Position numbers and translations under genes: made by a program. Shown here one piece after another: positions 1 through 18,026 of a DNA stretch of 32,000 nucleotides. The notes beneath the pieces are model-generated. The model saw nothing but the letters and a program-made list of their open reading frames with translations, did not search any database and was not told the DNA's origin. The DNA comes from Schaalia meyeri (GTDB taxonomy: Bacteria > Actinomycetota > Actinomycetes > Actinomycetales > Actinomycetaceae): the NCBI RefSeq assembly GCF_900105015.1, contig NZ_FNLK01000010.1, forward strand, positions 1-32,000, in the 5' to 3' direction. Positions within the stretch are counted from its first letter, which is position 1. Each line of letters opens with the position of its first letter.

Positions 1-115
1 GACGGCGGTTCGGCGTCTTCCGGTGGGGAGACCGAGGGGACCCAGAACGCACACGATCAGGGACAGCAGCAGGGCGTCTGACGCAAACTAGAGTTAGGGA
101 AAGGACTGTTTGATT

Positions 116-1576
116 ATGGTTTCGTCGCCGATGTATGAGCGTTTGAAGGTTTTCATGGAGGCGGCCCGGGCCAATCGTGGGCTGGATGCCTGGGATACCG
201 ACCACGAGAAGACGATGGAGGGTTTTGAGCAGGCGATTGATCGCTTGAAGGACTATCGCGATGGTCATGGTTTTACGGGTAAGACCGGGGACGCGATGAA
301 CCGGTGGGTGGACCGGTCCATCAGCCGCATCGAGGGCTACCGGGCCAAGTATCAGCGCGGATACAACGCCTATTCCGCGGGCCGCAAATCGATGGAGTCG
401 GCCCTGAAGGAGGCGGAGTTGCTTTCGCCGGATTTGTTGGATGCGAAGACTGCGGCGATGCGTGGTGCTCCGCTTGTTGCGGTTCCTGAGAGTGAGCCGG
501 GGGGTGGCGTGTCACTGTTGGGGATGCGTTTCACGACTGGTGAGGCTTACGCGTCTGCGGTTGAGGAGCAGAACAACGCCCAGCGCGAGGCCGCGGCGGC
601 GCGCGTGCTGCACATGGTGAATGGTAAGACCAAGCTGTTCAGCAGTATCGTGAAGGGCTCTGCTTCCGGCCCGGGAGTAGAGCAAAGCGGCAAGGGATCA
701 CCTGACTCTGGCTCGGACCCGTCAGCTGATACGTGGGGTTATTCTTCTGGGAATGGTTTTGGTCGCCAGGGTGGTCGTAGTTCTTCTTCGGGTGATTATC
801 CGGGTGGGTTTGATCAGCCGTGGTGGAGTGAGGCTGATGCGGCTGCGGCTCGTAATCGGACGGTTGCTTCGGGTGCGTTGCCTACGCGGGAGCCTTCGTA
901 TGGGGATGTGGGGTCGCGGACGAATCCGATTACGGATCCTCAGGATTTGATGGATACGGATTTGTTGCATCGGCGTGTTAATGGTACGGCGTATCGTAAT
1001 GGTGTTGTGGGGGGTCATACGCCGGCTCCTGCGGCGGATGTGGATCATCCGTTGTGGCGCCTTAATGGTGGTGGTGCCTCTGATTCGTCTGTGGCTGGTC
1101 GTTTGGGTGGTGCGGGTGTGCTGGGTGCTGGCGCGCTGGGTATGCGTGGTGCGGCCCGCATGGGCTCGGGTGGTCTGGGCGCCGCTGGCGGGCTCAAGGT
1201 TGGTTCTTATTCTGGGTCTGGGTTTGGTTCCTACACTCCCCCCTCGGCTGGTGCGAATGGTGGCGCGGGCTCGGGTGCGTCTGGTGTGACGGGCGCGGCT
1301 GGTAAGGCCGGCGCTGCTGGCGCTGCTGGTAAAAGCGGTGCTGGTGCTGCTGGTGGTCGTGGTTTCATGGGTGGTGGTGCCGGCGCTGGTGCGGGTGCTG
1401 GTAAGCAGGATCGTAAGGGGCGTAAGCGTAAGTATGTGGCGTTTACGTTTGAGGATGAGGATGAGGGTGGGTTGCCTCGGGGGTATGTGAATCCGTTGTC
1501 GCAGATGTCTGGGAATGACCGGAGTATTACTCCGGCGAAGCGTGTGGATGATGGGTGGGATCCTCGCCAATGGTGA
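116..1576 (+). CDS. Gly/Ala/Ser-rich protein with an N-terminal helical hairpin domain and no signal peptide; possible type VII-style secreted substrate (the product is inference)
   Basis: This is ORF 110-1576. ATG 116 lies 10 nt after AGGGAAAGGA (96-105); TTG 110 is an alternative start. The N-terminal ~110 aa are charged and helical with no hydrophobic leader. The turn motif HGFTGKTGDAMNRW resembles the WXG/LXG hairpin turn pattern [W/L/F]xG..A..W. Residues ~190-440 are Gly/Ser/Ala low complexity. The tail is charged: KQDRKGRKRKYVAFTFEDEDE. Confidence 0.65.
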   Translation: MVSSPMYERLKVFMEAARANRGLDAWDTDHEKTMEGFEQAIDRLKDYRDGHGFTGKTGDAMNRWVDRSISRIEGYRAKYQRGYNAYSAGRKSMESALKEAELLSPDLLDAKTAAMRGAPLVAVPESEPGGGVSLLGMRFTTGEAYASAVEEQNNAQREAAAARVLHMVNGKTKLFSSIVKGSASGPGVEQSGKGSPDSGSDPSADTWGYSSGNGFGRQGGRSSSSGDYPGGFDQPWWSEADAAAARNRTVASGALPTREPSYGDVGSRTNPITDPQDLMDTDLLHRRVNGTAYRNGVVGGHTPAPAADVDHPLWRLNGGGASDSSVAGRLGGAGVLGAGALGMRGAARMGSGGLGAAGGLKVGSYSGSGFGSYTPPSAGANGGAGSGASGVTGAAGKAGAAGAAGKSGAGAAGGRGFMGGGAGAGAGAGKQDRKGRKRKYVAFTFEDEDEGGLPRGYVNPLSQMSGNDRSITPAKRVDDGWDPRQW

Positions 1577-2799
1577 ATCCTATGCATGTTTTCGCGCCCC
1601 ACCCACCCCGCCTGGCTGTGGGGTGGGTGGGGCGTGCTGCGCGCGTCCTTGCTGCTGCTGTCTGCGTCGTGACTATGGCCCTGGGTGTGCTTGTGTTGGT
1701 GCCTGCGTCGGCCCTTGCGGATGATGTGATTACGACGCAGGAGTATTTCTCTTATTATCATTTGGATACTGCTCGTGCGAAGGGGTATACGGGTAAGGGC
1801 GTGACCATCGCCCTCATCGACGGCCCCGTAGACACCAGCGCGCCTGAGCTCAAGGGCGCCAACATCACTGATAAGAGCCGATGCACCATCGAAGCATCCA
1901 AAAAGGGGAGGGGCCATGGCACGGATATGGCGTCGATTCTCGTCTCCCCGTATTTCGGGGTAGCGCCCGACGCGGCCCTCTACTCCTATCAGCTGTCTAA
2001 TGCCAATTCGATCTCGGCAGGTACGTGTCAGAAGGACGGGGAGAAGCTCGATACTTTCGGTAAATTGATCAATCAGGCTATTGATGACGGCGCCCAGATC
2101 ATTTCCATTTCGCAAGGCGGTGATGACAACACTCTTGAGTTGAAGTGGGCGATTGCTCGGGCGATGAGCCGGGGGGTCATTATTGTCAACTCCGCGGGCA
2201 ATACGGGGGCCGATGCTAACGAAGATCAGCTTAGCGGTAGGTCTGGTGTGGTGGGGGTGTCCGCGATCACCAGCGACGGCAAGTTCGCCAACTACTCCTC
2301 TTGGGGCAACGGGGTGACCACCGCCGCTTTTGGCGGACCTGTCACGACACGTGATGATACAGACGCCACCAAGCTGGCGGTGTCTAATGGTTCGTCGAAT
2401 TCGGCGGCGATCGTGTCGGGGTTGTTGGCGTTGGCTCGTCAGAAGTGGCCGGACGCTACGGCGAATCAGACCCTGCAAGTCCTGACCCGCACCGGGCTGA
2501 ACCCAAACCACCAGTGGGATAAGTACACAGGGTACGGGGCCGCTAACATTGGTCCGTTGGTGAACACGGACCCCTCCCAGTACCCAGACGAAAACCCCCT
2601 GGCACAAAAGGAAGGCGGATCCAAACCTACGGTGGAAGAAGTTCAGGACTACGCCGACGGACTTGCTGATCCCAGGTACGTTGGTTCCCCCGACTCTTAC
2701 GTGTATCGGGGAACCGACGAAACGCTCCTGAATCTCGTCGACCCCAATAGCTCGGCCCCCATCCACCTGGGTACCAGTCCCAAGTATCACCGAAAATGA
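1570..2799 (+). CDS. secreted subtilisin-like (S8 family) serine peptidase, paralog A
   Basis: This is ORF 1555-2799. The N-terminal hydrophobic segment VLAAAVCVVTMALGVLVLVPASALADD looks like a signal peptide or anchor. Catalytic motifs are present: IALIDGPVD (Asp), GRGHGTDMASIL (His), NSAGNTG (oxyanion Asn) and NGSSNSAAIVSG (Ser). The start is uncertain: GTG 1555, ATG 1570 (ATGGTGA overlap with the upstream stop at 1574-1576) or ATG 1582. There is no C-terminal TM segment. Confidence 0.85.
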   Translation: MVNPMHVFAPHPPRLAVGWVGRAARVLAAAVCVVTMALGVLVLVPASALADDVITTQEYFSYYHLDTARAKGYTGKGVTIALIDGPVDTSAPELKGANITDKSRCTIEASKKGRGHGTDMASILVSPYFGVAPDAALYSYQLSNANSISAGTCQKDGEKLDTFGKLINQAIDDGAQIISISQGGDDNTLELKWAIARAMSRGVIIVNSAGNTGADANEDQLSGRSGVVGVSAITSDGKFANYSSWGNGVTTAAFGGPVTTRDDTDATKLAVSNGSSNSAAIVSGLLALARQKWPDATANQTLQVLTRTGLNPNHQWDKYTGYGAANIGPLVNTDPSQYPDENPLAQKEGGSKPTVEEVQDYADGLADPRYVGSPDSYVYRGTDETLLNLVDPNSSAPIHLGTSPKYHRK

Positions 2800-4052
2800 T
2801 CACGATGGATCGCGCGCGACACCCTGATCCTGTTTCTGCGGCGCCTTGCACGCCCCGCTCACACCGTCTGGTTTCGGGGTGGGTGGGGCGCCCCGCGCGC
2901 GCCCTTGCCGCGGCCGCTTCCGTCCTGGCGCTGACTGTTGGTGCTCTTGTGTTGGTGCCTGCGTCGGCGCGGGCGGATGATGTGATTACGACGCAGGAGT
3001 ACTTCTCTTATTATCATTTGGATACTGCTCGGGCTAAGGGGTATACGGGTAAGGGCGTGACCATCGCCCTCATCGACGGCCCGGTCGAGCTGAGCGATCC
3101 CGAGCTCAAGGGAGCCAACATCACCGACAAAAGCCGATGCACGATCAACGCAACGATCGCGAGCCGTTACCATGGTAGTGAAATGGCAGCCATCCTCGCG
3201 TCCCAGGCGTATGGCGTCGCCCCGGAAGCAACGATCCTGTCCTACCAAAAGCCTACATCCGACGACACGCCCTCAGAATCGTGCAAGGAGGGTGGCAAGA
3301 AGTTGCACAGTGACGCGAGTTTGATCAACAGTGCTATCGATGACGGTGCGCAGATCATTTCTGCATCTTTTAGTACCAATGACACCAGTGATGACCTCAA
3401 GTGGGCGATTGCTCGGGCGATGAGCCGGGGGGTCATTATTGTCAACTCCGCGGGCAATACCGGAACGGACAACAATCATAGTCAGTTGAGTCAGTGGTCT
3501 GGTGTGGTGGGGGTGTCCGCTATCACCAGTGATGGGAAGTTCGCCAAATACTCCTCGTGGGGTAACGGGGTGACCACCGCGGCCGTCGGCGGGCCACTCA
3601 AGGTGCGAGACTTCGATACTGGCAAAACAGCAGTCACCAATGGTTCGTCGAACTCGGCGGCGATCGTTTCCGGGATGTTGGCTCTGGCTCGTCAGAAGTG
3701 GCCCGACGCCACGGCGAACCAGACCCTGCAAGTCCTAACCCACACCGGGCTGAACCCAAACCACGAGTGGAACAAGTACACGGGGTACGGGGCCGCTAAC
3801 ATTGGTCCGTTGGTGAATACGGACCCCTCCCAGTACCCAGACGAAAACCCCCTGGCCCAAAAGGAAGGCGGATCCAAACCCACCGCGAGCGAGGTACAAG
3901 ACTACGCCGACGGACTGGCTGATCCCAGACGTACCACTTCTGATAGCTCCTACGCTTATCGCGGCACGGACGATTCAATCTTCGCCTACATCAACCCCGG
4001 TGACGAGAGGCCCATCCACCTGGGCACCAGCCCCAGATACCACCGCAAGTGA
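2796..4052 (+). CDS. secreted subtilisin-like (S8 family) serine peptidase, paralog B
   Basis: ATG 2796 overlaps the stop of paralog A (ATGA, 2796-2799). The signal-like segment is ALAAAASVLALTVGALVLVPASARADD. Motifs are IALIDGPVE (Asp), SRYHGSEMAAIL (His), NSAGNTG and NGSSNSAAIVSG (Ser). Long stretches are nucleotide-identical to paralog A. Confidence 0.88.
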   Translation: MITMDRARHPDPVSAAPCTPRSHRLVSGWVGRPARALAAAASVLALTVGALVLVPASARADDVITTQEYFSYYHLDTARAKGYTGKGVTIALIDGPVELSDPELKGANITDKSRCTINATIASRYHGSEMAAILASQAYGVAPEATILSYQKPTSDDTPSESCKEGGKKLHSDASLINSAIDDGAQIISASFSTNDTSDDLKWAIARAMSRGVIIVNSAGNTGTDNNHSQLSQWSGVVGVSAITSDGKFAKYSSWGNGVTTAAVGGPLKVRDFDTGKTAVTNGSSNSAAIVSGMLALARQKWPDATANQTLQVLTHTGLNPNHEWNKYTGYGAANIGPLVNTDPSQYPDENPLAQKEGGSKPTASEVQDYADGLADPRRTTSDSSYAYRGTDDSIFAYINPGDERPIHLGTSPRYHRK

Positions 4053-4077
4053 CCACGACCGTGACTCGCGCGCGACC

Positions 4078-5202
4078 TCACACGCCCGCGGCGGCCTCTG
4101 GGTAAGCGTCAAGGCAACCCGTGTCCGGGCTATCCAGATCGCCACAGTTGACTGGGTTGGTGTCGGCACTCAAGTCAGCTTGCGCAGCTCCTGTCACTGT
4201 CGGTGAATAGTCGATGGGGGTAAGAGCCGCGAGTTTCCGGTCTGCTTGCCGGCAGTAGCCCTCAATGAGTCGCTGGATGGCGCGCAGCGTTGAATTGACG
4301 AGGTGGTTGCGTGGAACCTCCACGTGCAGATCACCGAAGAAGAGGGGACGGCGGCGCTCGATCCGCTCACTAAATCCCTTGAGATCAGCCACCATGTGGC
4401 TCAGCGCCTTGTGCGAATCGGCAAACTCGAGATGGCACAGGAGGGCAGCTGCGAAGTTGTTGACGACCAAGCGGTCGAGGGCGTCGTTGAGAGCCTTCTT
4501 TTTGCCGGAGTTGCGTCTGGGGCTGACGCCGCACATGCGTAAGGCAGCCAGAGTAACCTCTTTGTCGTAGCGCTTTCCGTTGGACTGGCGGCGTCCTTCG
4601 GAGGGGCGCGAGACATCGGCGAGTAGGCAATTGCCGTGAGACACGGCGTTGCGGAGCTTGCGCACGATGAACAATAGATGTGCGTACGGAGCTTGCATGT
4701 CATGGTAGTCGAAGTATGACGAGTAGAGTCGGATGTGTTCGTTGAGAGGAAGCAACTCCCAGAGATGCCAGATGGAGGGGGCATTGTTGCACGCTTCCCA
4801 CATATCCTCCGTGTATGGATTGCAGCGTATCAAGGAGGTATCGCCGTGGAGGATTCGGCGCACAAGAGTCTCCGATAGATCGGGTTTGGGATCGTTCATG
4901 ATGAGCTGGTTGAGCCGCACCTTGAGGAAATGCTCGGTGCTGAGAGCGAGCGAGAGGCAGATTCGGCTCAGCGCAAAATCCATATAAGAAAGCTCAACGA
5001 GGTGACCGAAGTCGAGACCCGAATAGGTATAGGTCGCTCCTATCTCTATCCTTTTGTAGTTTCGTTCGTAGGACTTGATCTTGAAAAAATATGAGCGCGA
5101 GCGAAGAAACTCTCGGGCCGAGTCTTCATCCATTAGCTCGAATGTGATTCCGTGTGACTTCAGTAAAGCAATCTGCTCATCGATGGTGATGCTCCGCCTC
5201 AT
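4078..5202 (-). CDS. Abi family protein (AbiD/AbiF-like, Abi_2 domain), abortive-infection type
   Basis: The start is ATG 5202-5200, preceded by ACGAGG and 5 nt. The sequence MRRSITIDEQIALLKSHGITFELMDEDSAREFLRSRSYFFKIKSYERNY...LLFIVRKLRNAVSHGNCLL is typical of the Abi_2 family. The upstream 152 codons of ORF 4078-5658 are GC-rich read-through with no homology signal. The gene body is visibly AT-richer than its neighbours. Confidence 0.8.
   Translation of the reverse strand: MRRSITIDEQIALLKSHGITFELMDEDSAREFLRSRSYFFKIKSYERNYKRIEIGATYTYSGLDFGHLVELSYMDFALSRICLSLALSTEHFLKVRLNQLIMNDPKPDLSETLVRRILHGDTSLIRCNPYTEDMWEACNNAPSIWHLWELLPLNEHIRLYSSYFDYHDMQAPYAHLLFIVRKLRNAVSHGNCLLADVSRPSEGRRQSNGKRYDKEVTLAALRMCGVSPRRNSGKKKALNDALDRLVVNNFAAALLCHLEFADSHKALSHMVADLKGFSERIERRRPLFFGDLHVEVPRNHLVNSTLRAIQRLIEGYCRQADRKLAALTPIDYSPTVTGAAQADLSADTNPVNCGDLDSPDTGCLDAYPEAAAGV
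4084..4135. repeat. direct repeat copy 1 flanking the Abi cassette (overlaps the last codons of the Abi ORF)
   Basis: GCCCGCGGCGGCCTCTGGGTAAGCGTCAAGGCAACCCGTGTCCGGGCTATCC aligns by eye with 5342-5393 at about 44 of 52 positions, with one indel. Confidence 0.8.
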
Positions 5203-5302
5203 GCGGACCTCGTTGTTCCAAAAATTATGAGGGGGCCGAATCTGCGATCCGACCCCCCGATACCCTGGAGCCGAACCCCCGAGCATCTGACGTAGTGCCC
5301 CC

Positions 5303-5331
5303 AGTCTATAGTTGCTCGTGCTCGCAGTCAA
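5303..5331 (-). promoter_or_regulatory. candidate sigma-70-type promoter of the Abi gene
   Basis: On the minus strand: TTGACT (5331-5326), a 17-nt spacer, then TAGACT (5308-5303). This implies a 5' UTR of about 95 nt before ATG 5202. Confidence 0.45.
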
Positions 5332-5341
5332 ACACCTCCTA

Positions 5342-5393
5342 GCCCGCGTCGGCCTCTGGGTGAGCCTCAAGGCAACCGGGGGCCGGGCGATCC
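5342..5393. repeat. direct repeat copy 2 flanking the Abi cassette
   Basis: GCCCGCGTCGGCCTCTGGGTGAGCCTCAAGGCAACCGGGGGCCGGGCGATCC has the same orientation as 4084-4135 and lies 1258 bp from it. Confidence 0.8.
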
Positions 5394-5574
5394 GGGCCAT
5401 TCCGGCGCTGATGGCCGGATTGTTTCCGCGGGGTCGATTTTTGCAACGCTTCATATGTTGTAATTCCGAGCCAGTGTAGGGTGGAACACAGGGCTTTGCG
5501 CTCCATGTAAAAGACGCATATTCGCACGTTAGAGCCGATTGAGGTGGCCAATGATGTGCGGATACGCCGGAGCT

Positions 5575-5603
5575 TTGACGCGTCACGATCCGGGTCCTAT
5601 GTT
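5575..5603 (+). promoter_or_regulatory. candidate promoter of the activase-fusion gene
   Basis: TTGACG (5575-5580), a 17-nt spacer, TATGTT (5598-5603), then the SD GCAGGAGG (5615-5622) and ATG 5628. The -35 sits inside the perfect 10-bp palindrome TGACGCGTCA (5576-5585). Confidence 0.5.
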
Positions 5604-5627
5604 GTGGGGTGATCGCAGGAGGTCTCC

Positions 5628-8600
5628 ATGACAACGCAGCGCCCCCAGGACGCTCCACGTCCCTACCAGCTCGGTATCGACGTCGGTTCCACGACGGTCA
5701 AGGCCGTCGTCCTGGACGGAAACCGCCGACTCTTCTCGGACTACAGGCGGCACAACGCTGACGTGCGCGCTTCCCTGGGGGCGCTCCTCGCCGACGTCGA
5801 GCGCGCGCTGCCCGATGCCCGCGTGCACGCGGCGATCACCGGTTCCGGTGGCCTGACGACCGCGCGCGCCATGGGCATCCCCTTCGTGCAGGAAGTCATC
5901 GCGGGCACGGAGGCCACGCAGCGCCTGCACCCCGAGGTCGACGTCGTCATCGAGCTGGGCGGCGAAGACGCCAAGCTCACCTACCTGCACCCCACGCCCG
6001 AGCAGCGCATGAACGGCACCTGCGCGGGCGGCACCGGCGCCTTCATCGACCAGATGGCAACCCTGCTGCACACCGACGCCGCCGGATTGGGCGAGCTGGC
6101 GACGCGCCACACGCAGCTCTATCCGATCGCGTCGCGCTGCGGCGTGTTCGCCAAGTCGGACATCCAGCCCCTCATCAACCAGGGGGCCGCCCACGAGGAC
6201 CTGGCCGCCTCCATCTTTAACGCGGTCGCCACGCAGACGATCGCAGGCCTGGCGTGCGGGCGCCCGATCCGCGGGACGGTCATGTTCCTGGGAGGGCCCC
6301 TGCACTTCCTGCCAGCCCTGCGCGAGGCCTACAAAACACTGCTGCCCAAAGCAGACGCCTTCGTCACCCCCGACGACGCCCAGCTCTACGTCGCGATCGG
6401 CGCGGCCCTGCTGGCCGAGAAGGAAGCGGCTAAGAAACGGCGCCAGGCCGACGAAGCCAGGGCCGCCTCCCTGGACTCGCACGGCGACAGGCTCACCTCC
6501 CTGATGGACCGCCTGGCCGCCGCCCCCGTACAGGTCGAGTCACCGCGCATGGACCCCCTCTTCGCCTCCCCCAAGGACCGTGAGGAGTTCATGGAGCGTC
6601 ACGGCCGCGACGTCATTCCAAAGGCGAGCCCAGAGGCGGCCCAGGGGCGCTGCTGGCTGGGCATCGACGCGGGATCCACGACGATCAAGGCCGTCGTCAT
6701 AGACTCCGAGGACCGGATCGTCTTTACCCACTACGCCTCCAACGAGGGCGACCCCGTGGCCGCCGCCGTCGACATCGTGCGCGCGGTGCGCGGCGCGCTG
6801 CCGCAGGGGTGCGAAATCGGGCGCTCGTGCTCCACCGGATACGGCGAGGGCCTGGTGAAATCCGCCCTCACGATGGACGAAGGCGAGATCGAAACCATGG
6901 CCCACTACCGGGCCGCCGAGTTCATCTGCCCGGGCGTCACCTCCGTCATCGACATCGGCGGCCAGGACATGAAGTACCTGCGCATCCGCGACCACGCCGT
7001 GGACTCCATCTCCGTCAACGAGGCCTGTTCCTCCGGATGCGGGTCCTTCCTGCAAACCTTCGCGCAGACGATGGGTACGGACGTGCACTCGTTTGCCCGC
7101 ATGGCGATGGAGTCGAGCTCGCCGGTGGACCTGGGAACCCGCTGCACGGTGTTCATGAACTCCTCCGTCAAGCAGGCCCAGAAGGAAGGCGCGGACGTGC
7201 GCGACATCAGCGCAGGCCTGTCCTACTCGGTGGTGCGCAACGCCCTGTATAAAGTCATCAAGCTCAAGGATCCTTCCGACCTGGGCGAAAGGATCGTGGT
7301 CCAGGGCGGCACCTTCCTCAACGACTCCGTGCTGCGCGCCTTCGAGCTCCTGACGGGACGGCGCGTGGTTCGCCCCGACATCGCAGGCCTCATGGGAGCC
7401 TATGGCGCGGCCCTCACCGCGCGCATGCATGACAGCGGGGAGGGCACCTCGTCCCTGGCCACGGTCGAATCCCTGGAAGACTTTAGCGTAGAGACCACGC
7501 GCAAGACGTGTCGCCTGTGCCAGAACCACTGCCAGATGACCATCTCGACGTTCTCCAACGGCGAGCGCCACGTGTCGGGTAACCGCTGCGAACGCGGCGC
7601 CTCATTAGAGCGCGTCCCAAAGAAGTCGAACCTGCCCAACCTCTACGACTGGAAGTACAAGCGTATCTTTGGATACCGGCGCCTCACAGAGAAAAAGGCA
7701 TTCCGGGGGGACATCGGCGTGCCGCGCGTGCTCGGCATGTACGAAAACTACCCGTTCTGGTTCACGATGCTCTCTGCCCTGGGATTCCGCGTCATGATCT
7801 CCGGCCGCTCCAACCACGACCTGTTTGAAACGGGGATGGAGTCGATTCCCTCGGAGAACGTGTGCTACCCCGCCAAGCTGGTTCACGGGCACATCGAATC
7901 CCTGCTGGACAAGGGCCTCACCACGATCTTTTACCCGTGCGTGGACTTTGAACAAAAGCTGACGGAGGGCGACAACTCCTTTAACTGCCCCATCGTGGCC
8001 ACCTACCCGGAGGTTATTCGCAACAACATGGAGCGGCTGGCCGAACCGGGTGTGCGCTTCATCAGCCCGTTCATCAACTTTGGCAACCGCGATTACCTGC
8101 CCGCCCACCTGTCCAAAACCTTCAAGGAATACGGCTACGACATCCCCGTCGACGAAATGAAGGCCGCCTTGGACAAGGCGTGGGAGGAGGACGCCGCCGT
8201 CAAGGCGGAAATCCGCGCGAAGGGCGCCGAGACGATCGCGTGGATGCGCGAGAACGGCGTGCGAGGCATCGTCCTGGCCGGACGCCCCTATCACCTGGAC
8301 CCCGAGATCAACCACGGCATCCCCGAGGTCATCATCGGGCTGGGAATGGCGGTGCTCACGGAGGACAGCATCGTCGACGCGCGCCTCGAACGACCCCTGC
8401 GCGTGCTCGACCAGTGGACCTACCACTCGCGCCTCTACGAGGCCGCCGCCCGCGTCGGCGACGAAGCGGACCTGGCGATGGTCCAGCTGAACTCGTTTGG
8501 CTGCGGCGTCGACGCCATCACTGCCGACCAGGTTCAGGAAATCCTCGAAGGGCGCGGCGACGTGCACACCGTCCTCAAGATCGACGAGGTCTCTAACCTG

Positions 8601-10643: not shown

Positions 10644-11749
10644 TGGAGACCATCGATAATTTCCTCGACGCCATGTTCGCACCCTACCCAGCCTCGACAC
10701 GACTGACCGACGCCAAAGTCGAACTGCGCGCCATGATGGAGGACGCCTACGCCGACGCCATCGCCTCCGGCATGACGCACAACGAGGCGGTCGGCCGTGT
10801 CATCACCGACTTCGGAAACCTCCAGGAGATCGCCCCCGTCCTCGGTATCGCCGACGACCTCACCGCCGTCAACGGGGCGCCCCAGCCGGAGGCAGCCCCC
10901 GCGCGGGCCGGGACCGACGGGACCGGGACCCCGAGCAGGCCCCGCGTCACACTGCCCGAGGCGCAAGAACTCGCCGAAGCGCGCAGGCGCGGGGCCGCCA
11001 GCCTGGGACTCAGCGTCGCCATCCTGGTCTCGACGGGCATCCCCATGTTCGCGCTCCGGGGGCTGACGGAGGTCGGCCTCGTCCCCTTCAACGAGGACAC
11101 GGCCACCTTCCTGGCCCTGGGTGTGGACCTGCTGCTCGTCGCCCTCGGCGTCATCATGCTGCTGTCCAGATCCCGGTTGTTCGCCAACGTCAAACACCTG
11201 GTGAACCTGGAGTTCACGCCCGACCCCATCGTCACGGCGTGGGCGGCCAGGCTGCGCCTTGAGCACGAGGACCGGCGTATGCGGCGCCTCACCATCGCCG
11301 TCGGACTGTGGATCTGCGCGGCGCTGCCACTCGCGGTGGTCCAAGCGCTGCCACCCATCGGCATCGGTATGGACGTGCCGGCGGGCGCCGACAACGGGAC
11401 GCTCAACGGCGGCGACCTGTTCGAGCTCGCCCTGGCGCTGTCGGTGGCGCTCGTGGCGCTCGGCCTGTGGATCTTCCTGCCCGCCAACTGGGCCGTGCAA
11501 ACGCAGCAGACCCTCATCCGCGAGGGCCGCCAAGAGTACGACTACGACGAAGAGAACTACCGCGACCCCGTCATCGGGATCGTCGCCAGCGTCTACTGGC
11601 CGTGCGTCGTCGTCGCCTACTTCGTGTGGGGGGCCGTCTTCGACCAGTGGGACAAGTCGTGGGTGCTCTTCCCCATCTCAGGACTGCTGTTCGGGGTCTT
11701 CGCCGCAGTGCGGACGTCGATCCGCCGCGCCAAGGCCGGCCCCCGGTAG
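10640..11749 (+). CDS. membrane protein with a PadR-associated N-terminal helical domain (DUF1700/permease-prefix-like)
   Basis: ATG 10640 overlaps the PadR stop (ATGA). The N-terminus METIDNFLDAMFAPYPASTRLTDAKVELRAMMEDAYADAIASGMTHNEAVGRVITDFGNLQEIAP is typical of sensors encoded after PadR genes. Several hydrophobic TM segments follow. Confidence 0.75.
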   Translation: MMETIDNFLDAMFAPYPASTRLTDAKVELRAMMEDAYADAIASGMTHNEAVGRVITDFGNLQEIAPVLGIADDLTAVNGAPQPEAAPARAGTDGTGTPSRPRVTLPEAQELAEARRRGAASLGLSVAILVSTGIPMFALRGLTEVGLVPFNEDTATFLALGVDLLLVALGVIMLLSRSRLFANVKHLVNLEFTPDPIVTAWAARLRLEHEDRRMRRLTIAVGLWICAALPLAVVQALPPIGIGMDVPAGADNGTLNGGDLFELALALSVALVALGLWIFLPANWAVQTQQTLIREGRQEYDYDEENYRDPVIGIVASVYWPCVVVAYFVWGAVFDQWDKSWVLFPISGLLFGVFAAVRTSIRRAKAGPR

Positions 11750-13751: not shown

Positions 13752-15752
13752 CTACATCGAGGCGGACTCGCGATCCGAGTCGCGCGAAATCTTGCGCGCG
13801 AAACGGTACAGCAACCACGAGGCGCCGGCGAAGAACGCGACACCCAAGACGTTCGCGACGGGCGTGTAGCCCTGGCCGATGAAGGGTAACGCGAGCGGCG
13901 AATCCAACCCCGTCGCGCCCGCGATACCCGCGTAAACCACACCGAACAGGGATTCGCCCACGATCAGGCCGGTCGCGGCCAGCGTGCCGAAACGCTTCGC
14001 GCGCTCCGCGTCAGCCTGCTTTGACGCCCACCTGTTGTAGAGGAAGCCGGCCAGGCCGCCGATCGGGATCAGGATCGTCAGCGCCGCGGGCAGGTAAATC
14101 CCCATGCCCACCGCCAGCGGAGGCAGAGCCAGCTTGCCCTTCGACGCGGGACGCGCCACCTCGTCAATGACGATGACGACGACGCCAATCACCGCGCCGA
14201 TACCCAGCAGCTTCCAGTCGATGCCGCCGCCCAACACGCCCTTTGCCAGCGACGAAATCAGCGAGGCCTGAGGGGCCGCTAACGCGTCCGGACCCGCGCC
14301 GGGCGCGCCCTGGAAACCAAACGAATTCTGCATCAGCTGCAGCACCGGCGGAATGACCAGCGCGCCGAAAACAACGCCGATGATGAGGGCAACCTGCTGC
14401 TTCCAGGGGGTCGCTTCCACCAGCTGACCCGTCTTCAGGTCCTGCAGGTTATCGTTTGAAATCGTCGCAATGCAGAACACGATCGCCGACGTAAACAGCG
14501 CGAACGCGATCAGCGCCGTATTCTCTTGCACGGTCGCCCCGCGACCGTGCACCGCCAAAATGACGACCGCCGTGACCACGACAACCAGCAGGCCCACGCC
14601 CGACACGGGCGAGTTGGACGCGCCAATCAGGCCCGCCATGTAGCCGCACACCGCCGCAACCAACAGGCCGGCCAGCAAAATGAACAAGACCGACACCGCA
14701 ATCAGCGTGGCCGTATTGTGTTCGATCTGAGTGCCGCGAATAAACCACCACAGCAGGCCGGCGATCGGGATCATCGCCGCGACGATCGACACGATCACCC
14801 ACGTGCCCGGAATATCCTGTTCCGTGCGTTCAATCTCCCGGCCGACGTCCCCGGCCCCGCGCGAGGCGCGCAGCGACTCTTTGATGCCGCGGGCGATCGG
14901 CCCCATGATTTTTACGAGCGTCCAAATGGCGGCGACCGCCATGACGCCGGCACCGATGAAACGCACGTCGTTCTTAAAGATGGTGGACAGCGCCTCCGTC
15001 AAATCCTCCGCGTCTTCGACAGAGCCGTCAGCGTACAGAGGCAGCAGGACCCCGTAGGACAACAGCATGCCGATCAGCATCGCGATGCCGACCGTCATAC
15101 CCACCAGGTGGCCCACGCCGACGAGCGCCAGCGACAGCGACGTCGACAACATCGTGCCCGTCGAACCGATCTTGAGGGCGGCCCCCACCTCGGAAGCCGT
15201 GACCTTCAGGTAGCCGAGCAGCGTCATCGCGGCGGACGCCAGCGCGCCCCACGTGATTGCCAGCAGGCCGCGCTTGTTATCCTGGCCGGCATCCTTCGCA
15301 TCGCCGACCTTCAGGATTTCGGCACCGGCCACGCCCTCTGGATAGGGCAAATCCGAACCCGTCACCAACGCGCGGCGCAGCGGAATCGAATACATGACGC
15401 CCAGCGCACCGCCCACGGCGCACACAAACATGGTTTGCCAATACGGAAACCCGCTCCACCAACCCACGATCACGAGGCCCGGCAGGACGAAAATGACCGC
15501 CGAAAGTGTGCCGGCAGCGGACGCGATGGTCTGAACAATGTTGTTCTCTTGAACCGTGTGATCGCTCCAGAAGCGCAAAATCGCCATCGAAATGACCGCC
15601 GCCGGGATCGACGTCGCGAAGGTCAGGCCGACCTTCAGACCCAGGTACACGTTTGCCGCCGTGAACACCAGCGTGATGATTCCGCCGATGACGATGCCGC
15701 GCAAGGTTAGTTCTTTGAGCGACGTTTGCTTGATCGCATGTGGCGCAGACAC
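13752..15752 (-). CDS. OPT family oligopeptide transporter
   Basis: GTG 15752 is preceded by GAAAGGA and 5 nt. The sequence LRGIVIGGIITLVFTAANVYLGLKVGLTFATSIPAAVISMAILR and about 16 hydrophobic segments are typical of the OPT superfamily. The 52 codons upstream in ORF 13752-15908 look like non-coding read-through. Confidence 0.88.
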   Translation of the reverse strand: MSAPHAIKQTSLKELTLRGIVIGGIITLVFTAANVYLGLKVGLTFATSIPAAVISMAILRFWSDHTVQENNIVQTIASAAGTLSAVIFVLPGLVIVGWWSGFPYWQTMFVCAVGGALGVMYSIPLRRALVTGSDLPYPEGVAGAEILKVGDAKDAGQDNKRGLLAITWGALASAAMTLLGYLKVTASEVGAALKIGSTGTMLSTSLSLALVGVGHLVGMTVGIAMLIGMLLSYGVLLPLYADGSVEDAEDLTEALSTIFKNDVRFIGAGVMAVAAIWTLVKIMGPIARGIKESLRASRGAGDVGREIERTEQDIPGTWVIVSIVAAMIPIAGLLWWFIRGTQIEHNTATLIAVSVLFILLAGLLVAAVCGYMAGLIGASNSPVSGVGLLVVVVTAVVILAVHGRGATVQENTALIAFALFTSAIVFCIATISNDNLQDLKTGQLVEATPWKQQVALIIGVVFGALVIPPVLQLMQNSFGFQGAPGAGPDALAAPQASLISSLAKGVLGGGIDWKLLGIGAVIGVVVIVIDEVARPASKGKLALPPLAVGMGIYLPAALTILIPIGGLAGFLYNRWASKQADAERAKRFGTLAATGLIVGESLFGVVYAGIAGATGLDSPLALPFIGQGYTPVANVLGVAFFAGASWLLYRFARKISRDSDRESASM

Positions 15753-15794: not shown

Positions 15795-16159
15795 TGCATC
15801 GATGCTTCGGACCCAGTAGTGCGCATGGCGCCCATCCGCGCTATCACGTCGGTTGTGATCCACAGAGGCGCGGCGAGGATGGGCGGATCCTGCCAGGCGG
15901 CCCCGCAACCGATCGGGCCGTATTTCCGCCCGATGACGCGCCCCGCGAGCTTTCCCGTGCCGACATCGACGGACGTTGCATGCCTGTATCCCTGGCGTGG
16001 GGGCGGTTCGGAGCGTTCGCGCTCAGCGTGCACGCCCGACGCACCTGCTTTAGGTGCTGGGGTCGGTTGAGGGCGCCGCGGCGGCCCGCGTGGGGGCGCG
16101 ACCTGGTTTTCGCGCGGGGGTCGGTTTGGAGGTGGCCCATGTGCCGTTTTGAGCCGGTT

Positions 16160-16362
16160 ACCTTGTTCCCCGCTTCCATGAATGGTTTTGCTTTGCGTCA
16201 CATTTGAATCGTTCGGCGTGACCTGGTTCCCCGCGTGCACGAATGGTTTGATATCGAGGACGGGTTTTTGACCCCCTGTTCCCTTGTGCGTGAATGGTTT
16301 TGCGTGGGTCTGCTTGCTCGCCATCGTCACCCCTGTTTCCCGCGTGCTTGATTGATTTGCGC
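16160..16362 (+). repeat. four imperfect tandem repeats (~27-36 nt units, 53-61 bp period) upstream of tRNA-Ser
   Basis: Unit cores are TGTTCCCCGCTTCCATGAATGGTTTTGC (16164-16191), GGTTCCCCGCGTGCACGAATGGTTTG (16225-16250), TGTTCCCTTGTGCGTGAATGGTTTTGC (16277-16303) and TGTTTCCCGCGTGCTTGATTGATTTGC (16334-16360). Each is preceded by a (G)T(N)ACC(C/T) segment. Confidence 0.75.
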
Positions 16363-16386
16363 TCGCGAGGGTTCCTGCAGTAAAAT
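16357..16386 (+). promoter_or_regulatory. candidate promoter of tRNA-Ser
   Basis: TTGCGC (16357-16362), an 18-nt spacer, TAAAAT (16381-16386). The mature tRNA 5' end lies 11 nt downstream. The -35 lies inside the fourth upstream repeat unit. Confidence 0.45.
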
Positions 16387-16396
16387 TACTAGCCGA

Positions 16397-16486
16397 GGTA
16401 GCGTGTCCGAGCGGCCGAAGGTGCAGCACTCGAAATGCTGTGTGGTGTCACAGCCACCCTGGGTTCAAATCCCAGCGCTACCGCCA
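16397..16486 (+). tRNA. tRNA-Ser (anticodon CGA), class II with a long variable arm, CCA encoded
   Basis: Manual fold: acceptor GGTAGCG/CGCTACC; anticodon stem CAGCA/TGCTG with loop CTCGAAA (anticodon CGA); variable arm GTGG...CCAC; T arm CTGGG-TTCAAAT-CCCAG; discriminator G and CCA at 16484-16486. The D stem has one U-U mismatch. Confidence 0.93.
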
Positions 16487-16490
16487 CTGG

Positions 16491-16524
16491 CCGTCCGGCC
16501 CCAGACGGGGCCGGACGGTTTTGT
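16491..16524 (+). terminator. rho-independent terminator after tRNA-Ser
   Basis: A perfect 12-bp stem CCGTCCGGCCCC / GGGGCCGGACGG with loop AGAC, followed by TTTTGTTGTGTGTTTG. Confidence 0.85.
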
Positions 16525-17036
16525 TGTGTGTTTGTGTGGGTTTGGGCCAATGGGGGCATAGGGCAGAACGGAGTTGTAGGACGGGGCGTGTTGGTTGTGT
16601 TTGTACTTTTCGGTTTGTTTTCGCGGGAAAGTTGGTGTTGAAGTTGGTGGGCACCAGCTTGACGGATGGATAAACGTGTTGGTTTGTCCGTAATTTTTCG
16701 GCTTTCTGACGCGGAAAAATCCCGATTTAAACCGGATGTACGCGCCCCGATTTTAGCTAGGTGTGCGCGTCGTGGCGCCCGCGGCTGCCGACCCGCCTGG
16801 CTCGCGCTCTGTTGCGGGACCTCTTCGGGGCGCAGCCGCCGTCTTCGCTGTCGTTCGCCCAGGCCCGTGTTCTGCTGTTGGTGTTGCTGCCTTTTGCGGC
16901 TGTTTCCCCGTGTGTCTGTTTCCTAATCCAGATGCAGGGCTGCTGTCAACATCGCCCAAAAAGCGGTGCCTGCGATTGGCGGCCCGCCCAAACGCATGAT
17001 CTACCGCTGGTGTTGCTGCCCTTTGCGGCTGGTTCG

Positions 17037-17154
17037 TGGATAGGAAGTGCGTTTCTGGATAGGTTATGCACTCGTGGATAGGTTATTAACCTATCCAGAA
17101 GCTCGTAACCTATCCAGGTGGCCGTTTCCTATCCACGAAGCCGTTTCCTATCCA
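17037..17154. repeat. array of seven 8-bp boxes with strict 19-bp spacing: 3x TGGATAGG, then 4x CCTATCCA (inverted)
   Basis: TGGATAGG starts at 17037, 17056 and 17075. CCTATCCA starts at 17090, 17109, 17128 and 17147. The centre is a perfect 23-bp palindrome, TGGATAGGTTA-T-TAACCTATCCA (17075-17097). The array lies in non-coding DNA between tRNA-Ser and the 3' end of sodA. Confidence 0.9.
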
Positions 17155-17231
17155 GATGCGGGACTCACGCGCGCCGCGCGCTCTCACCCTGGCCCGCCAG
17201 GGCCGCATGAATCCGCCTGGGCCGCCAGCTC

Positions 17232-17873
17232 CTATGAGTTCGGCAAGCCCGCGGGTGCGTTCACCAGGCCGGAGGATAGGCGGGCAGCGTTGAAGCGGGA
17301 CGCGACGTTTTCCCAGTTAACCAGGTTCCACCAGGCCTTCACGTAGTTGGCCTTGACGTTGAGGTAATCCAGGTAGAAGGCGTGCTCCCACATGTCGATC
17401 ATGAGCAGGGGAAGGGTTGCGACGGGGGTGTTGCCCTGCTGGTCGGTCAGCTGGAAGGTCACCAGGCGCTCGGCGATGCTGTCCCACGCGAGGACGGCCC
17501 AGCCGGAGCCCTGCAGGCCCAGGGCGGCGGCCGCGAACTGCGCCTGGAAGGCCTCGAAGGAGCCGAAGAACTCGTTGATCGCGTCCGCGAGCTCTCCCGC
17601 GGGGCGGGACGCGCCCTCACCGGTCATGTTGGTCCAGAAGATCGAGTGGTTCGTGTGGCCGCCCAGGTTGAAGGCCAGGTTCTTTTCCCACAGGTTGATG
17701 GCTCCGAAATCACCGGCCTCGCGTGCTGCGGCCAGCTTGTCCAGCGCGGCGTTTGCCCCGGCCACGTACGCGGCATGGTGCTTATCGTGGTGCAGCTCCA
17801 TGATGCGCCCGGAGATATGGGGCTCAAGCGCGGAGTAGTCGTAGGGGAGATCGGGCAGGGTATAGGCAGTCAT
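17232..17873 (-). CDS. sodA: Fe/Mn superoxide dismutase
   Basis: The sequence MTAYTLPDLPYDYSALEPHISGRIMELHHDKHHAAYV...DMWEHAFYLDYLNVKANYV carries the canonical Fe/Mn-SOD signatures. The SD GAAGGAG precedes ATG 17873. Confidence 0.95.
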   Translation of the reverse strand: MTAYTLPDLPYDYSALEPHISGRIMELHHDKHHAAYVAGANAALDKLAAAREAGDFGAINLWEKNLAFNLGGHTNHSIFWTNMTGEGASRPAGELADAINEFFGSFEAFQAQFAAAALGLQGSGWAVLAWDSIAERLVTFQLTDQQGNTPVATLPLLMIDMWEHAFYLDYLNVKANYVKAWWNLVNWENVASRFNAARLSSGLVNAPAGLPNS

Positions 17874-18026
17874 GTTGCTCCTTCGGTGGGTCCTCTGTCA
17901 TTAGTCTGATGCCTCTAGACTAGTACTTTGGTCCCAGATTGCGAAGGGGGTGTGCGTAGGCTCTCGGCTGAATGCAATCGCTGCCCCCTCCGGTCCGCCC
18001 CGCGACCGCCGCGTGAAAACGTGGGA

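Follow-up and report, generated by a model that had tools for sequence, protein, structure and literature searches.

The spacer between the tRNA-Ser(CGA) gene (16397–16486, + strand) and the 3′ end of sodA (17232–17873, − strand) of Schaalia meyeri carries a mirror-symmetric array of short repeats, which raises the question of what kind of element this is and what might recognize it. Within the 32,000-nucleotide stretch of DNA analyzed here (the window), an earlier sequence-only reading had described seven boxes, three direct and then four inverted, and these are found exactly where it had placed them: TGGATAGG on the + strand at 17037, 17056 and 17075, followed by its complement CCTATCCA, marking − strand copies, at 17090, 17109, 17128 and 17147, with same-orientation neighbors spaced by exactly 19 bp throughout. 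The 32-kb window holds eight copies of TGGATAGG where 0.41 would be expected, and none of 100 shuffles reaches eight, which rules out a chance origin of the boxes; the array is real and non-random. The eighth copy stands isolated at 15339, within an OPT gene. Tandem Repeats Finder reports a 19-bp period at 17087–17156. The spacer holding the array measures 745 bp from tRNA-Ser to the sodA 3′ end, in agreement with the roughly 750 bp of gene-free DNA estimated before, and the public record (CP066065.1) calls no gene within it. A distance of 550 bp separates the array from the tRNA, and with respect to sodA it lies at the 3′ end and not at the promoter, as already argued in the sequence-only reading, which took it not to be a promoter-operator.

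Each repeat unit is composed of 5 nt, the core GGATAG and a further 8 nt. Since the conserved stretch of this 19-bp unit covers about 15 nt, and is thus wider than the 8-bp box, the complete array of three direct and four inverted parsed units extends over approximately 17033–17158. In the left arm (17033–17085, + strand), the cores of the three units are located at 17038, 17057 and 17076, and the units begin TTCGT-GGATAGGAAG, TTTCT-GGATAGGTTAT and CTCGT-GGATAGGTTAT, respectively; in the right arm (17087–17158, − strand), which has four inverted units, the core reads CTATCC and is found at 17091, 17110, 17129 and 17148. The two arms meet in a dyad centre at 17075–17097, TGGATAGGTTA-T-TAACCTATCCA, which fits the pattern GGATAG-S-TTA-N-TAA-S-CTATCC found throughout the family described below. 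This junction had been taken for a perfect 23-bp palindrome, and as an 11+1+11 palindrome it is perfect but for the central base, which is unable to pair with itself. The mirroring of the flanks across the axis, with TTCGTGGATAGGAA as the mirror of TTCCTATCCACGAA, was likewise borne out, and the arms (17033–17085 and 17087–17139) are 77% complementary over 53 nt.

The immediate surroundings of the array carry traces of rearrangement. A 51-nt direct repeat has one copy at 16856–16906 (+ strand) and a second, 80% identical, at 16985–17035 (+ strand), abutting the left edge of the array, and this pair, together with the repeat 16926–16941/17150–17165, indicates that flank and a unit, about 129 bp in all, were duplicated locally. 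The offsets of the repeat pairs at the array flanks differ by a whole number of units (224 minus 129 = 95 = 5 × 19 bp). The upstream paralogous copy of the flanks contains a solo degenerate unit, TTTCCTAATCCAGATGC, with one inserted A (16919–16935, − strand), which may be the remnant of a collapsed array or a unit that stayed behind after the local duplication. The sequence-only reading had called for a comparison of strains. In the one other S. meyeri contig that covers the tRNA–sodA locus, the array is present with an unchanged number of units and seven intact cores. The spacer region is 96.4% identical there, and one unit spacer has taken on the sequence of its neighbor by conversion. The closest sister taxa, with sodA 87–91% identical, lack the array, but since their spacer is unalignable, they provide no clean empty allele at the sodA locus. 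At other loci, candidate empty sites were explained by matches to other adjacent repeats or by diverged DNA.

The array is not peculiar to this locus. A scan that covered a single genome for each species, with the conserved centre motif GGATAGNTTANTAACCTATCC as query, returned, among the matches listed, more than 116 genome loci and in addition 6 IMG/VR contigs; nearly all hosts of the listed loci belong to Schaalia, the ‘Actinomyces odontolyticus-group’ or Pauljensenia. Three single matches of the centre motif in unrelated phyla look like chance. In the source genome, three arrays were found within the 53 kb looked at. The architecture is strikingly uniform: of 148 arrays, nearly all (approximately 140) consist of n direct and then m inverted units with a 19-bp period, the opposite, divergent order occurs in none of the 148, and the distance between the two central cores is 15 bp. 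The modal form is 3+3, seen in 60 of 138 parsed arrays, with a range of 1–6 units on one side and 1–8 on the other, and a logo computed from 825 units reads C-A-T-S-Y-GGATAGGTTA-y-k-a-r. Clusters of the GGATAG core are bimodal in size, with single cores at or below chance, almost no clusters of 2–3 and a peak at 5–7, from which it follows that the array is a discrete entity. Past the edges of the array, loci no longer resemble one another, conservation ending 5 nt beyond the outermost core, and by BLAST coverage the resemblance of the window array to other loci is limited to about 17037–17146 of the tRNA–sodA spacer. By its (G/T)TTCT or TTCGT leaders and the GGAAAC of its outer units, the copy in the window falls into a subtype that is also present in S. 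odontolytica and Schaalia sp. ORNL0103. It is essentially certain that the window array is a member of a dispersed and previously undescribed family on Schaalia and Pauljensenia chromosomes, which we call type I, and there are probably dozens of copies per genome. Our search of the literature found no description of these arrays.

Searches of mobile DNA point to a chromosomal family. No match to the arrays was found in 72,556 plasmids and 50,697 phages, and a two-box scan of viral contigs recovered this architecture solely in contigs of high GC content in which host-like genes are present as well. We read these array-bearing contigs of the viral set as host or prophage-border DNA, and the plasmid and phage negatives, together with the host-like genes, rule out a phage or plasmid element. 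The two-box scan also came upon an unrelated 11-box cluster in phage contigs with a GC content of 0.48.

The genomic distribution of the arrays is decidedly intergenic, with 1 of 149 overlapping a likely ORF. By crude gene calls, on which all position classes rest, spacers between convergent genes are over-represented, accounting for 32 of 92 classifiable arrays as compared to 85 of 501 background spacers; arrays are also found upstream of genes, in tandem and divergent spacers, and most are not beside tRNA genes. We observed no excess of target-site duplications in 136 arrays, considering 3–9 bp direct repeats at boundary offsets of 0–9. Identity in the variable columns is 0.573 for pairs within a genome and 0.555 for pairs between genomes, with a maximum of 0.79. 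The absence of near-identical arrays within genomes indicates that there was no recent copying burst, and recent proliferation is thereby ruled out. Orthologous positions in different species retain their arrays, the lengths of which differ by multiples of 19 bp (69, 88, 107, 126 and 145 bp), and units of the same arm are often identical and change together (compare loci L104 and L106). Comparison of equally long orthologous arrays gives identities of about 99% for the 10-nt cores, about 90% for the remaining array sequence and about 80% for the flanks, a contrast that is partly biased towards the cores because the arrays were located through them. These are old arrays that are passed on vertically and keep their positions, and they change mainly when entire 19-bp units are gained, lost or converted. 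The spacers drift, in contrast to the conserved unit core and phasing; the constraint acts at the level of sequence.

The sequence-only reading had left two options for what such an element does, a binding platform for one protein or a long hairpin. The array can certainly fold: the DNA strand forms a long interrupted hairpin (−36.4 kcal/mol, z = −9.6), and the RNA of the sodA-sense (minus) strand reaches −65.8 kcal/mol (z = −8.7), starting about 75 nt past the sodA stop codon. Selection for the hairpin was undetectable, however, since in 50 distinct 3+3 arrays 79.7% of cells are paired, compared to 79.4% in column-preserving shuffles. At the seven variable positions of the unit, hairpin partners agree with an identity of 0.39, random pairs with 0.42 and adjacent units of the same arm with 0.62; the only covarying pairs involve the two bases just before the core and track the subfamilies. 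Rfam matched the tRNA alone, both at E ≤ 1 in 15800–18000 and at gathering score across the window, and a terminator scan did not call the array, which has no U-tract after the stem. The conserved 10–15-nt sequence, the strict 19-bp phasing and the head-to-head order, combined with the lack of a pairing excess, lead us to infer recognition by a sequence-specific protein, and the data favor this over a selected hairpin. The platform half of the earlier proposal is thus the part that core conservation and phasing speak for. A strong RNA hairpin could form in the 3′ region of sodA, but the fold is not what is conserved, and a role tied to the regulation of tRNA-Ser or sodA at this locus is not indicated.

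Which protein might recognize the arrays? Among the loci with multiple arrays, we noticed a gene of about 355 codons that is bracketed by two arrays per side. Its homologue in the genome of the window is I6H42_01385, which lies between arrays at L240:9566–9682 and 11162–11259, of the forms 4+3 and 3+3 and of the same subtype as the window copy; the right arms of these two arrays are identical over 57 nt. Pfam gives weak matches for the product, to DUF559 and REase_MTES_1575 only, and no Y1 transposase domain, and searches of the sequence against NCBIfam and the PDB returned nothing. In an AlphaFold2 model of the protein (mean pLDDT 83), the C-terminal domain resembles 1cw0, the Vsr endonuclease (probability 0.99), and 3r3p, the catalytic domain of the homing endonuclease I-Bth0305I (probability 0.98), and an alignment of the family shows no variation at the residues D251, E262, D264 and K268. 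The model thus predicts a Vsr-like PD-(D/E)xK fold for the candidate partner.

The association of this nuclease-like gene with arrays is recurrent. It is single-copy in the sampled loci, syntenic, between a hydrolase gene and an ECF-sigma/EPSP-synthase block, and array-flanked in nearly every genome sampled and in all of those that bear arrays, with 1–4 arrays on each side in L086, L120, L130, L068, L148, L069 and L153/154. A metagenome search yielded 80 loci, all with close relatives of the protein (69–95% identical), in which an array was present within 600 bp upstream in 72 of 74 cases and downstream in 63 of 63, again 1–4 per side, compared to 7 other arrays in the approximately 390 kb of these loci. 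This amounts to a roughly 70-fold excess of arrays adjoining the gene. Since the type I nuclease locus is syntenic across species, the many flanked copies constitute one evolutionary observation. The unit subtype flanking the gene is the commonest dispersed subtype in 5 of 7 genomes and differs from it in the remaining 2, and other genes are array-bracketed in the same manner (L032, L020). In the literature we found no link between DUF559 and repeats, and no dispersed cognate repeat family for DUF559, REase_MTES_1575 or Vsr-fold proteins.

Because of this synteny, independent support for a link between protein and arrays comes only from two other clades of the protein. Next to apbE, a 40% identical homologue (L152) has arrays of AGTTAGGGAGCATTACACC units on either side, again in a 19-bp direct-then-inverted arrangement, and a 42% identical homologue (L238) has an array of the AGTTAGGGAGCATTACACC type at the start of its contig. 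A 47% identical homologue next to leuB (L146, L235) has an upstream 2+2 array of 19-bp GACACCACTTGGCGGCAT units. The nuclease clades thereby pair with different units, clade 1 with GGATAGGTTA, clade 2 with GACACCACTTGGCGGCAT, on the strength of that one short 2+2 array on one side, and clade 3 with AGTTAGGGAGCATTACACC. The AGTTAGGGAGCATTACACC arrays, which we call type II, are dispersed in loci of the S. odontolytica group, where a control with the reversed unit gave 0 clusters. Neither the type II unit nor the clade-2 unit turned up when viral contigs were scanned. Unrelated regions with a 19-bp period occur at a background of about 1 per 200 kb.

Taken together, and by analogy with the known repeat–enzyme systems discussed below, we consider the chances about even that the arrays and a Vsr-like PD-(D/E)xK partner form a REPIN/RAYT-like system of a new type, in which the array is a protein-binding platform. 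Each 19-bp unit would bind a single protomer, and the sequence-specific protein would assemble along both arms of the array; the candidate for this protein is the single-copy DUF559 protein, here I6H42_01385. Its assignment as the putative partner is based on the adjacency of gene and arrays; it is a credible choice and the best candidate. With at least three protein clades and three unit sequences, and with two array families coexisting in genomes of the S. odontolytica group, one could speculate, somewhat more tentatively, that the Actinomycetaceae carry an undescribed class of repeat–enzyme pairs: single-copy Vsr-like DUF559 proteins, each with cognate phased 19-bp palindromic arrays that it binds. 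Such a protein would bind its arrays and perhaps nick or maintain them, or may once have mobilized them. The system would then be an analogue of REPIN-RAYT built from a different nuclease superfamily and with an iteron-like repeat design, and the array near sodA would be one of the sites of the protein.

Two other readings would dispense with the nuclease. The arrays could be sites for a host chromosomal protein, such as a nucleoid-associated protein, a topology factor or a global regulator, acting much as gyrase and IHF do at BIME/REP elements, and the position of the nuclease gene would then be incidental. Conserved cores amid drifting spacers, strict phasing and the lack of covariation between arms are all compatible with such a factor, as are the enrichment in convergent spacers, which REP/BIME elements share, the array-bracketed genes other than the nuclease and the two genomes of seven in which flanking and dispersed subtypes disagree. 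It would leave unexplained, however, both the 70-fold excess of arrays beside the nuclease-like gene and the fact that distant homologues elsewhere adjoin arrays of a different sequence and the same 19-bp architecture, and we regard it as unlikely. Still less likely, in our judgment, is a role at the RNA level, where the arrays would act as 3′ UTR stem-loops that terminate transcription or shield the mRNA, here the sodA transcript, from 3′ exonucleases. REP sequences in Escherichia coli protect mRNAs or terminate transcription as 3′ stem-loops of this kind, and the stable minus-strand fold just after sodA, as well as the intergenic placement and the over-representation between convergent genes, would suit such a function. 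On the other hand, pairing is no better than column composition predicts, and the conserved feature is a specific 10–15-nt sequence rather than pairing; the missing U-tract, the negative terminator scan, the lack of an Rfam match at the array and the arrays upstream of genes, in tandem and divergent spacers, speak against it as well.

A mobile origin was also weighed. According to the sequence-only reading, an array found at many loci with target-site duplications would be simply a MITE. The many loci were indeed found, but as there are neither target-site duplications nor recent copies, the array is not simply a MITE. In the classical form of this explanation, the arrays would be non-autonomous DDE-transposons with iterated transposase sites as terminal inverted repeats, moved in trans; joined ends of the Mu, Tn7 or IS21 type are the comparison for such iterated transposase-binding termini. 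The dispersal, the multiple copies, the sharp edges and the inverted arms of repeated sites fit this description, and the modal 3+3 form recalls what we take to be the L1–3/R1–3 layout of Mu. Besides the missing duplications and the similar identities within and between genomes, the retention of arrays at orthologous sites across species, the lack of related elements in the plasmid and phage collections and the lack of any transposase gene between half-arrays make this improbable; no autonomous, transposase-encoding relative was seen in the fetched loci, plasmids or phages. Finally, the array could be an element specific to this locus, consisting of att arm sites, origin iterons, a cluster of DnaA boxes or a sodA operator of the DtxR/MntR type, and this we consider very improbable. 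It would draw on the proximity of the tRNA gene and sodA, on one unit that fits a DnaA box at 7 of 9 positions and on the TAGGTTA half-site that the array centre has in common with TTAGGTTAGCCTAACCTAA, which we take to be the DtxR/IdeR box consensus. The breadth of the family, with its more than 116 unrelated loci among the matches listed, the position at the 3′ end of sodA and the array-free, unalignable spacers of close relatives all stand against a function confined to this site. The sequence-only reading had compared the array to origin iterons, att arms and the ends of mobile elements, a comparison that did not survive, given these many loci and the absence of integrase, initiator (Rep) and transposase genes from the 32-kb window. 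Origin iterons are ruled out by dozens of loci per genome group and the lack of a rep gene in the window, and att arms of a tyrosine recombinase by the lack of an integrase gene in the window and the 550 bp to the tRNA. The resemblance to a DnaA box, which had also been pointed out, fell away at the level of the family, the consensus of which has GG where the DnaA box has AC. A DtxR/IdeR operator, presumably a 19-bp palindrome, TTAGGTTAGSCTAACCTAA, with half-sites 3 nt apart at a promoter, was rejected since the TAGGTTA/TAACCTA half-sites of the array are 1 nt apart and lie at the sodA 3′ end. A literature match for the string GGATAGGTTA was to a DtxR paper containing it.

Among the known systems, REP/BIME and REPIN-RAYT of the Proteobacteria provide the closest analogue to the proposed repeat–enzyme pair. 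They, too, are short extragenic palindromes dispersed along the chromosome with unrelated flanks, biased towards gene 3′ ends and convergent spacers, lacking target-site duplications and inherited vertically over long periods, and in REPIN-RAYT, as here, a single-copy gene is flanked by the repeats and the repeat sequence differs from one gene clade to the next. The Schaalia arrays nevertheless do not qualify as members, because defining features differ. The protein considered here has a predicted Vsr-like PD-(D/E)xK fold, whereas RAYT is an HUH/Y1 transposase of the IS200/IS605 type; the arrays have 2–11 iterated 19-bp units, whereas a REPIN is a pair of 20–35-nt hairpins; the Schaalia arrays have no GTAG-type leader, nor do they form, in any one genome, a population of nearly identical copies around a ‘master sequence’; and the host lineage is Actinomycetota.

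Other families share individual traits. Pneumococcal BOX and mycobacterial MIRU elements are likewise intergenic, dispersed, variable in module number in a VNTR-like manner and foldable as RNA or DNA, but BOX is organized as boxA-(boxB)n-boxC with 45-bp units and MIRU has 40–100-bp units in direct tandem only, and neither has a flanked partner gene or strictly phased 19-bp units whose orientation is reversed at a dyad. MITEs and foldback elements resemble the arrays in being small and numerous with inverted arms of short tandem units; in the Schaalia arrays we found no target-site duplications, recent copies, autonomous parent or content between the arms. Plasmid iterons, which are 19 bp in P1 and F, and partition centromeres have phased 17–22-bp units, and direct and inverted sets can co-occur. 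Their units each bind one protomer of a dedicated protein, as the Schaalia units may do, but they form 1–2 sites per replicon beside rep or par, whereas the Schaalia arrays are chromosomal and were not found in plasmids or phages. On the protein side, I-Bth0305I and the DUF559/REase_MTES_1575 proteins share with the candidate partner its predicted Vsr-like catalytic fold and conserved acidic and lysine residues. I-Bth0305I recognizes a long pseudo-palindromic site. The intron, intein or homing context of the Vsr-fold homing endonucleases is absent here.

To our knowledge, repeats tied to a domesticated enzyme have so far been known essentially as REP/REPIN with the RAYT tyrosine transposases of Proteobacteria. 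If the proposed partnership is correct, it would represent a second, independently evolved system, and repeat–enzyme partnerships would be a recurrent outcome of genome evolution. This system would combine a Vsr-fold nuclease with iteron-like arrays in a high-GC, Gram-positive bacterium from the oral and gut flora of humans, and would provide a first functional lead for the large, uncharacterized DUF559/MTES_1575 protein group. On a practical level, the arrays explain contig breaks in Schaalia assemblies, and their variation in 19-bp copy number makes them candidate markers for strain typing.

Two further small genes are, like the single-copy gene for the Vsr-like nuclease-like protein, bracketed by type I arrays (the dispersed family with the GGATAG core), in these cases about 1.3-1.6 kb apart. 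One (L032:2736-3377) encodes a 213-aa protein for which an NCBIfam search gave no match, and the other (L020:3571-4224) an uncharacterised 217-aa protein; the existence of these genes means that the arrays around the nuclease gene carry less significance.

A second palindromic array family, type II, has the unit AGTTAGGGAGCATTACACC with a period of 19 bp, and again direct units are followed by inverted ones (L152:1886-1990 and 3264-3365; L059:164-225; L082:334-395; L099:6438-6499; L025:2010-2110; L033:6925-7035; L184:479-540). These arrays are dispersed in loci of the S. odontolytica group, where they are often placed between two type I arrays, and a distantly related (40%) homologue of the nuclease-like gene has them on its flanks. 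Neither the window nor L240, the S. meyeri CP066065.1 locus that holds the nuclease-like gene, was found to contain any. At this latter locus, the sequence upstream of the gene includes a (GGGTGGAC)n microsatellite (L240:9380-9425), and tandem repeats of roughly 78 bp directly downstream (10920-11160) separate it from its flanking arrays. The annotated protein has 312 aa in S. meyeri, against about 360 in relatives.

Schaalia-type arrays also occur in records named Sanguibacter keddieii 250_SKED (L025, L028, L041, L108, L115, L131) and Xylanimonas cellulosilytica 352_XCEL (L053, L068, L084, L099, L106), the latter including the syntenic nuclease locus (L068) whose protein is about 90% identical to that of Pauljensenia/Schaalia. 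The species labels of both sets of records are probably wrong.

False matches to an empty site, that is, an orthologous position without an array, arose from another dispersed intergenic Schaalia repeat that often directly adjoins arrays, caatttcgcaYgYaattccc…gactatttcaRa…gaattca…gttgSaattScaa (L104:4330-4412; L026:1912-2002; L070:278-370; L053/L129; L145:3900-4050). GGATAG arrays are absent from the orthologous sodA-OPT spacer of the sister taxon (L137-L144, about 4180-4330), which contains ccctccaatccgcacgNcgg units in tandem, three ATAGCGGGTT boxes at intervals of about 21 bp and, in some strains (L142, L144, L145), an IS256-family (Transposase_mut) insertion.

Elsewhere in the window, positions 1-5700 have a GC content of 0.58-0.62, lower than the 0.65-0.75 of the remainder; this region, which may be acquired DNA, carries a tandem pair of subtilase (Peptidase_S8) genes together with a gene that encodes an Abi_2 domain. 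Directly after the tRNA-Ser terminator hairpin (16489-16520) lies a C-poor, strongly G/T-rich stretch (ttttgttgtgtgtttgtgtgggtttggg…, 16520-16660), and the AT skew of the 16-17 kb bin is -0.36. Unrelated to the arrays, an irregularly spaced cluster of 11 TGGATAGG/CCTATCCA boxes is nearly identical in two phage contigs from IMG/VR (L001:8922-9201 and L004:4494-4773; GC 0.48), where it may represent an origin or operator region of the phage.
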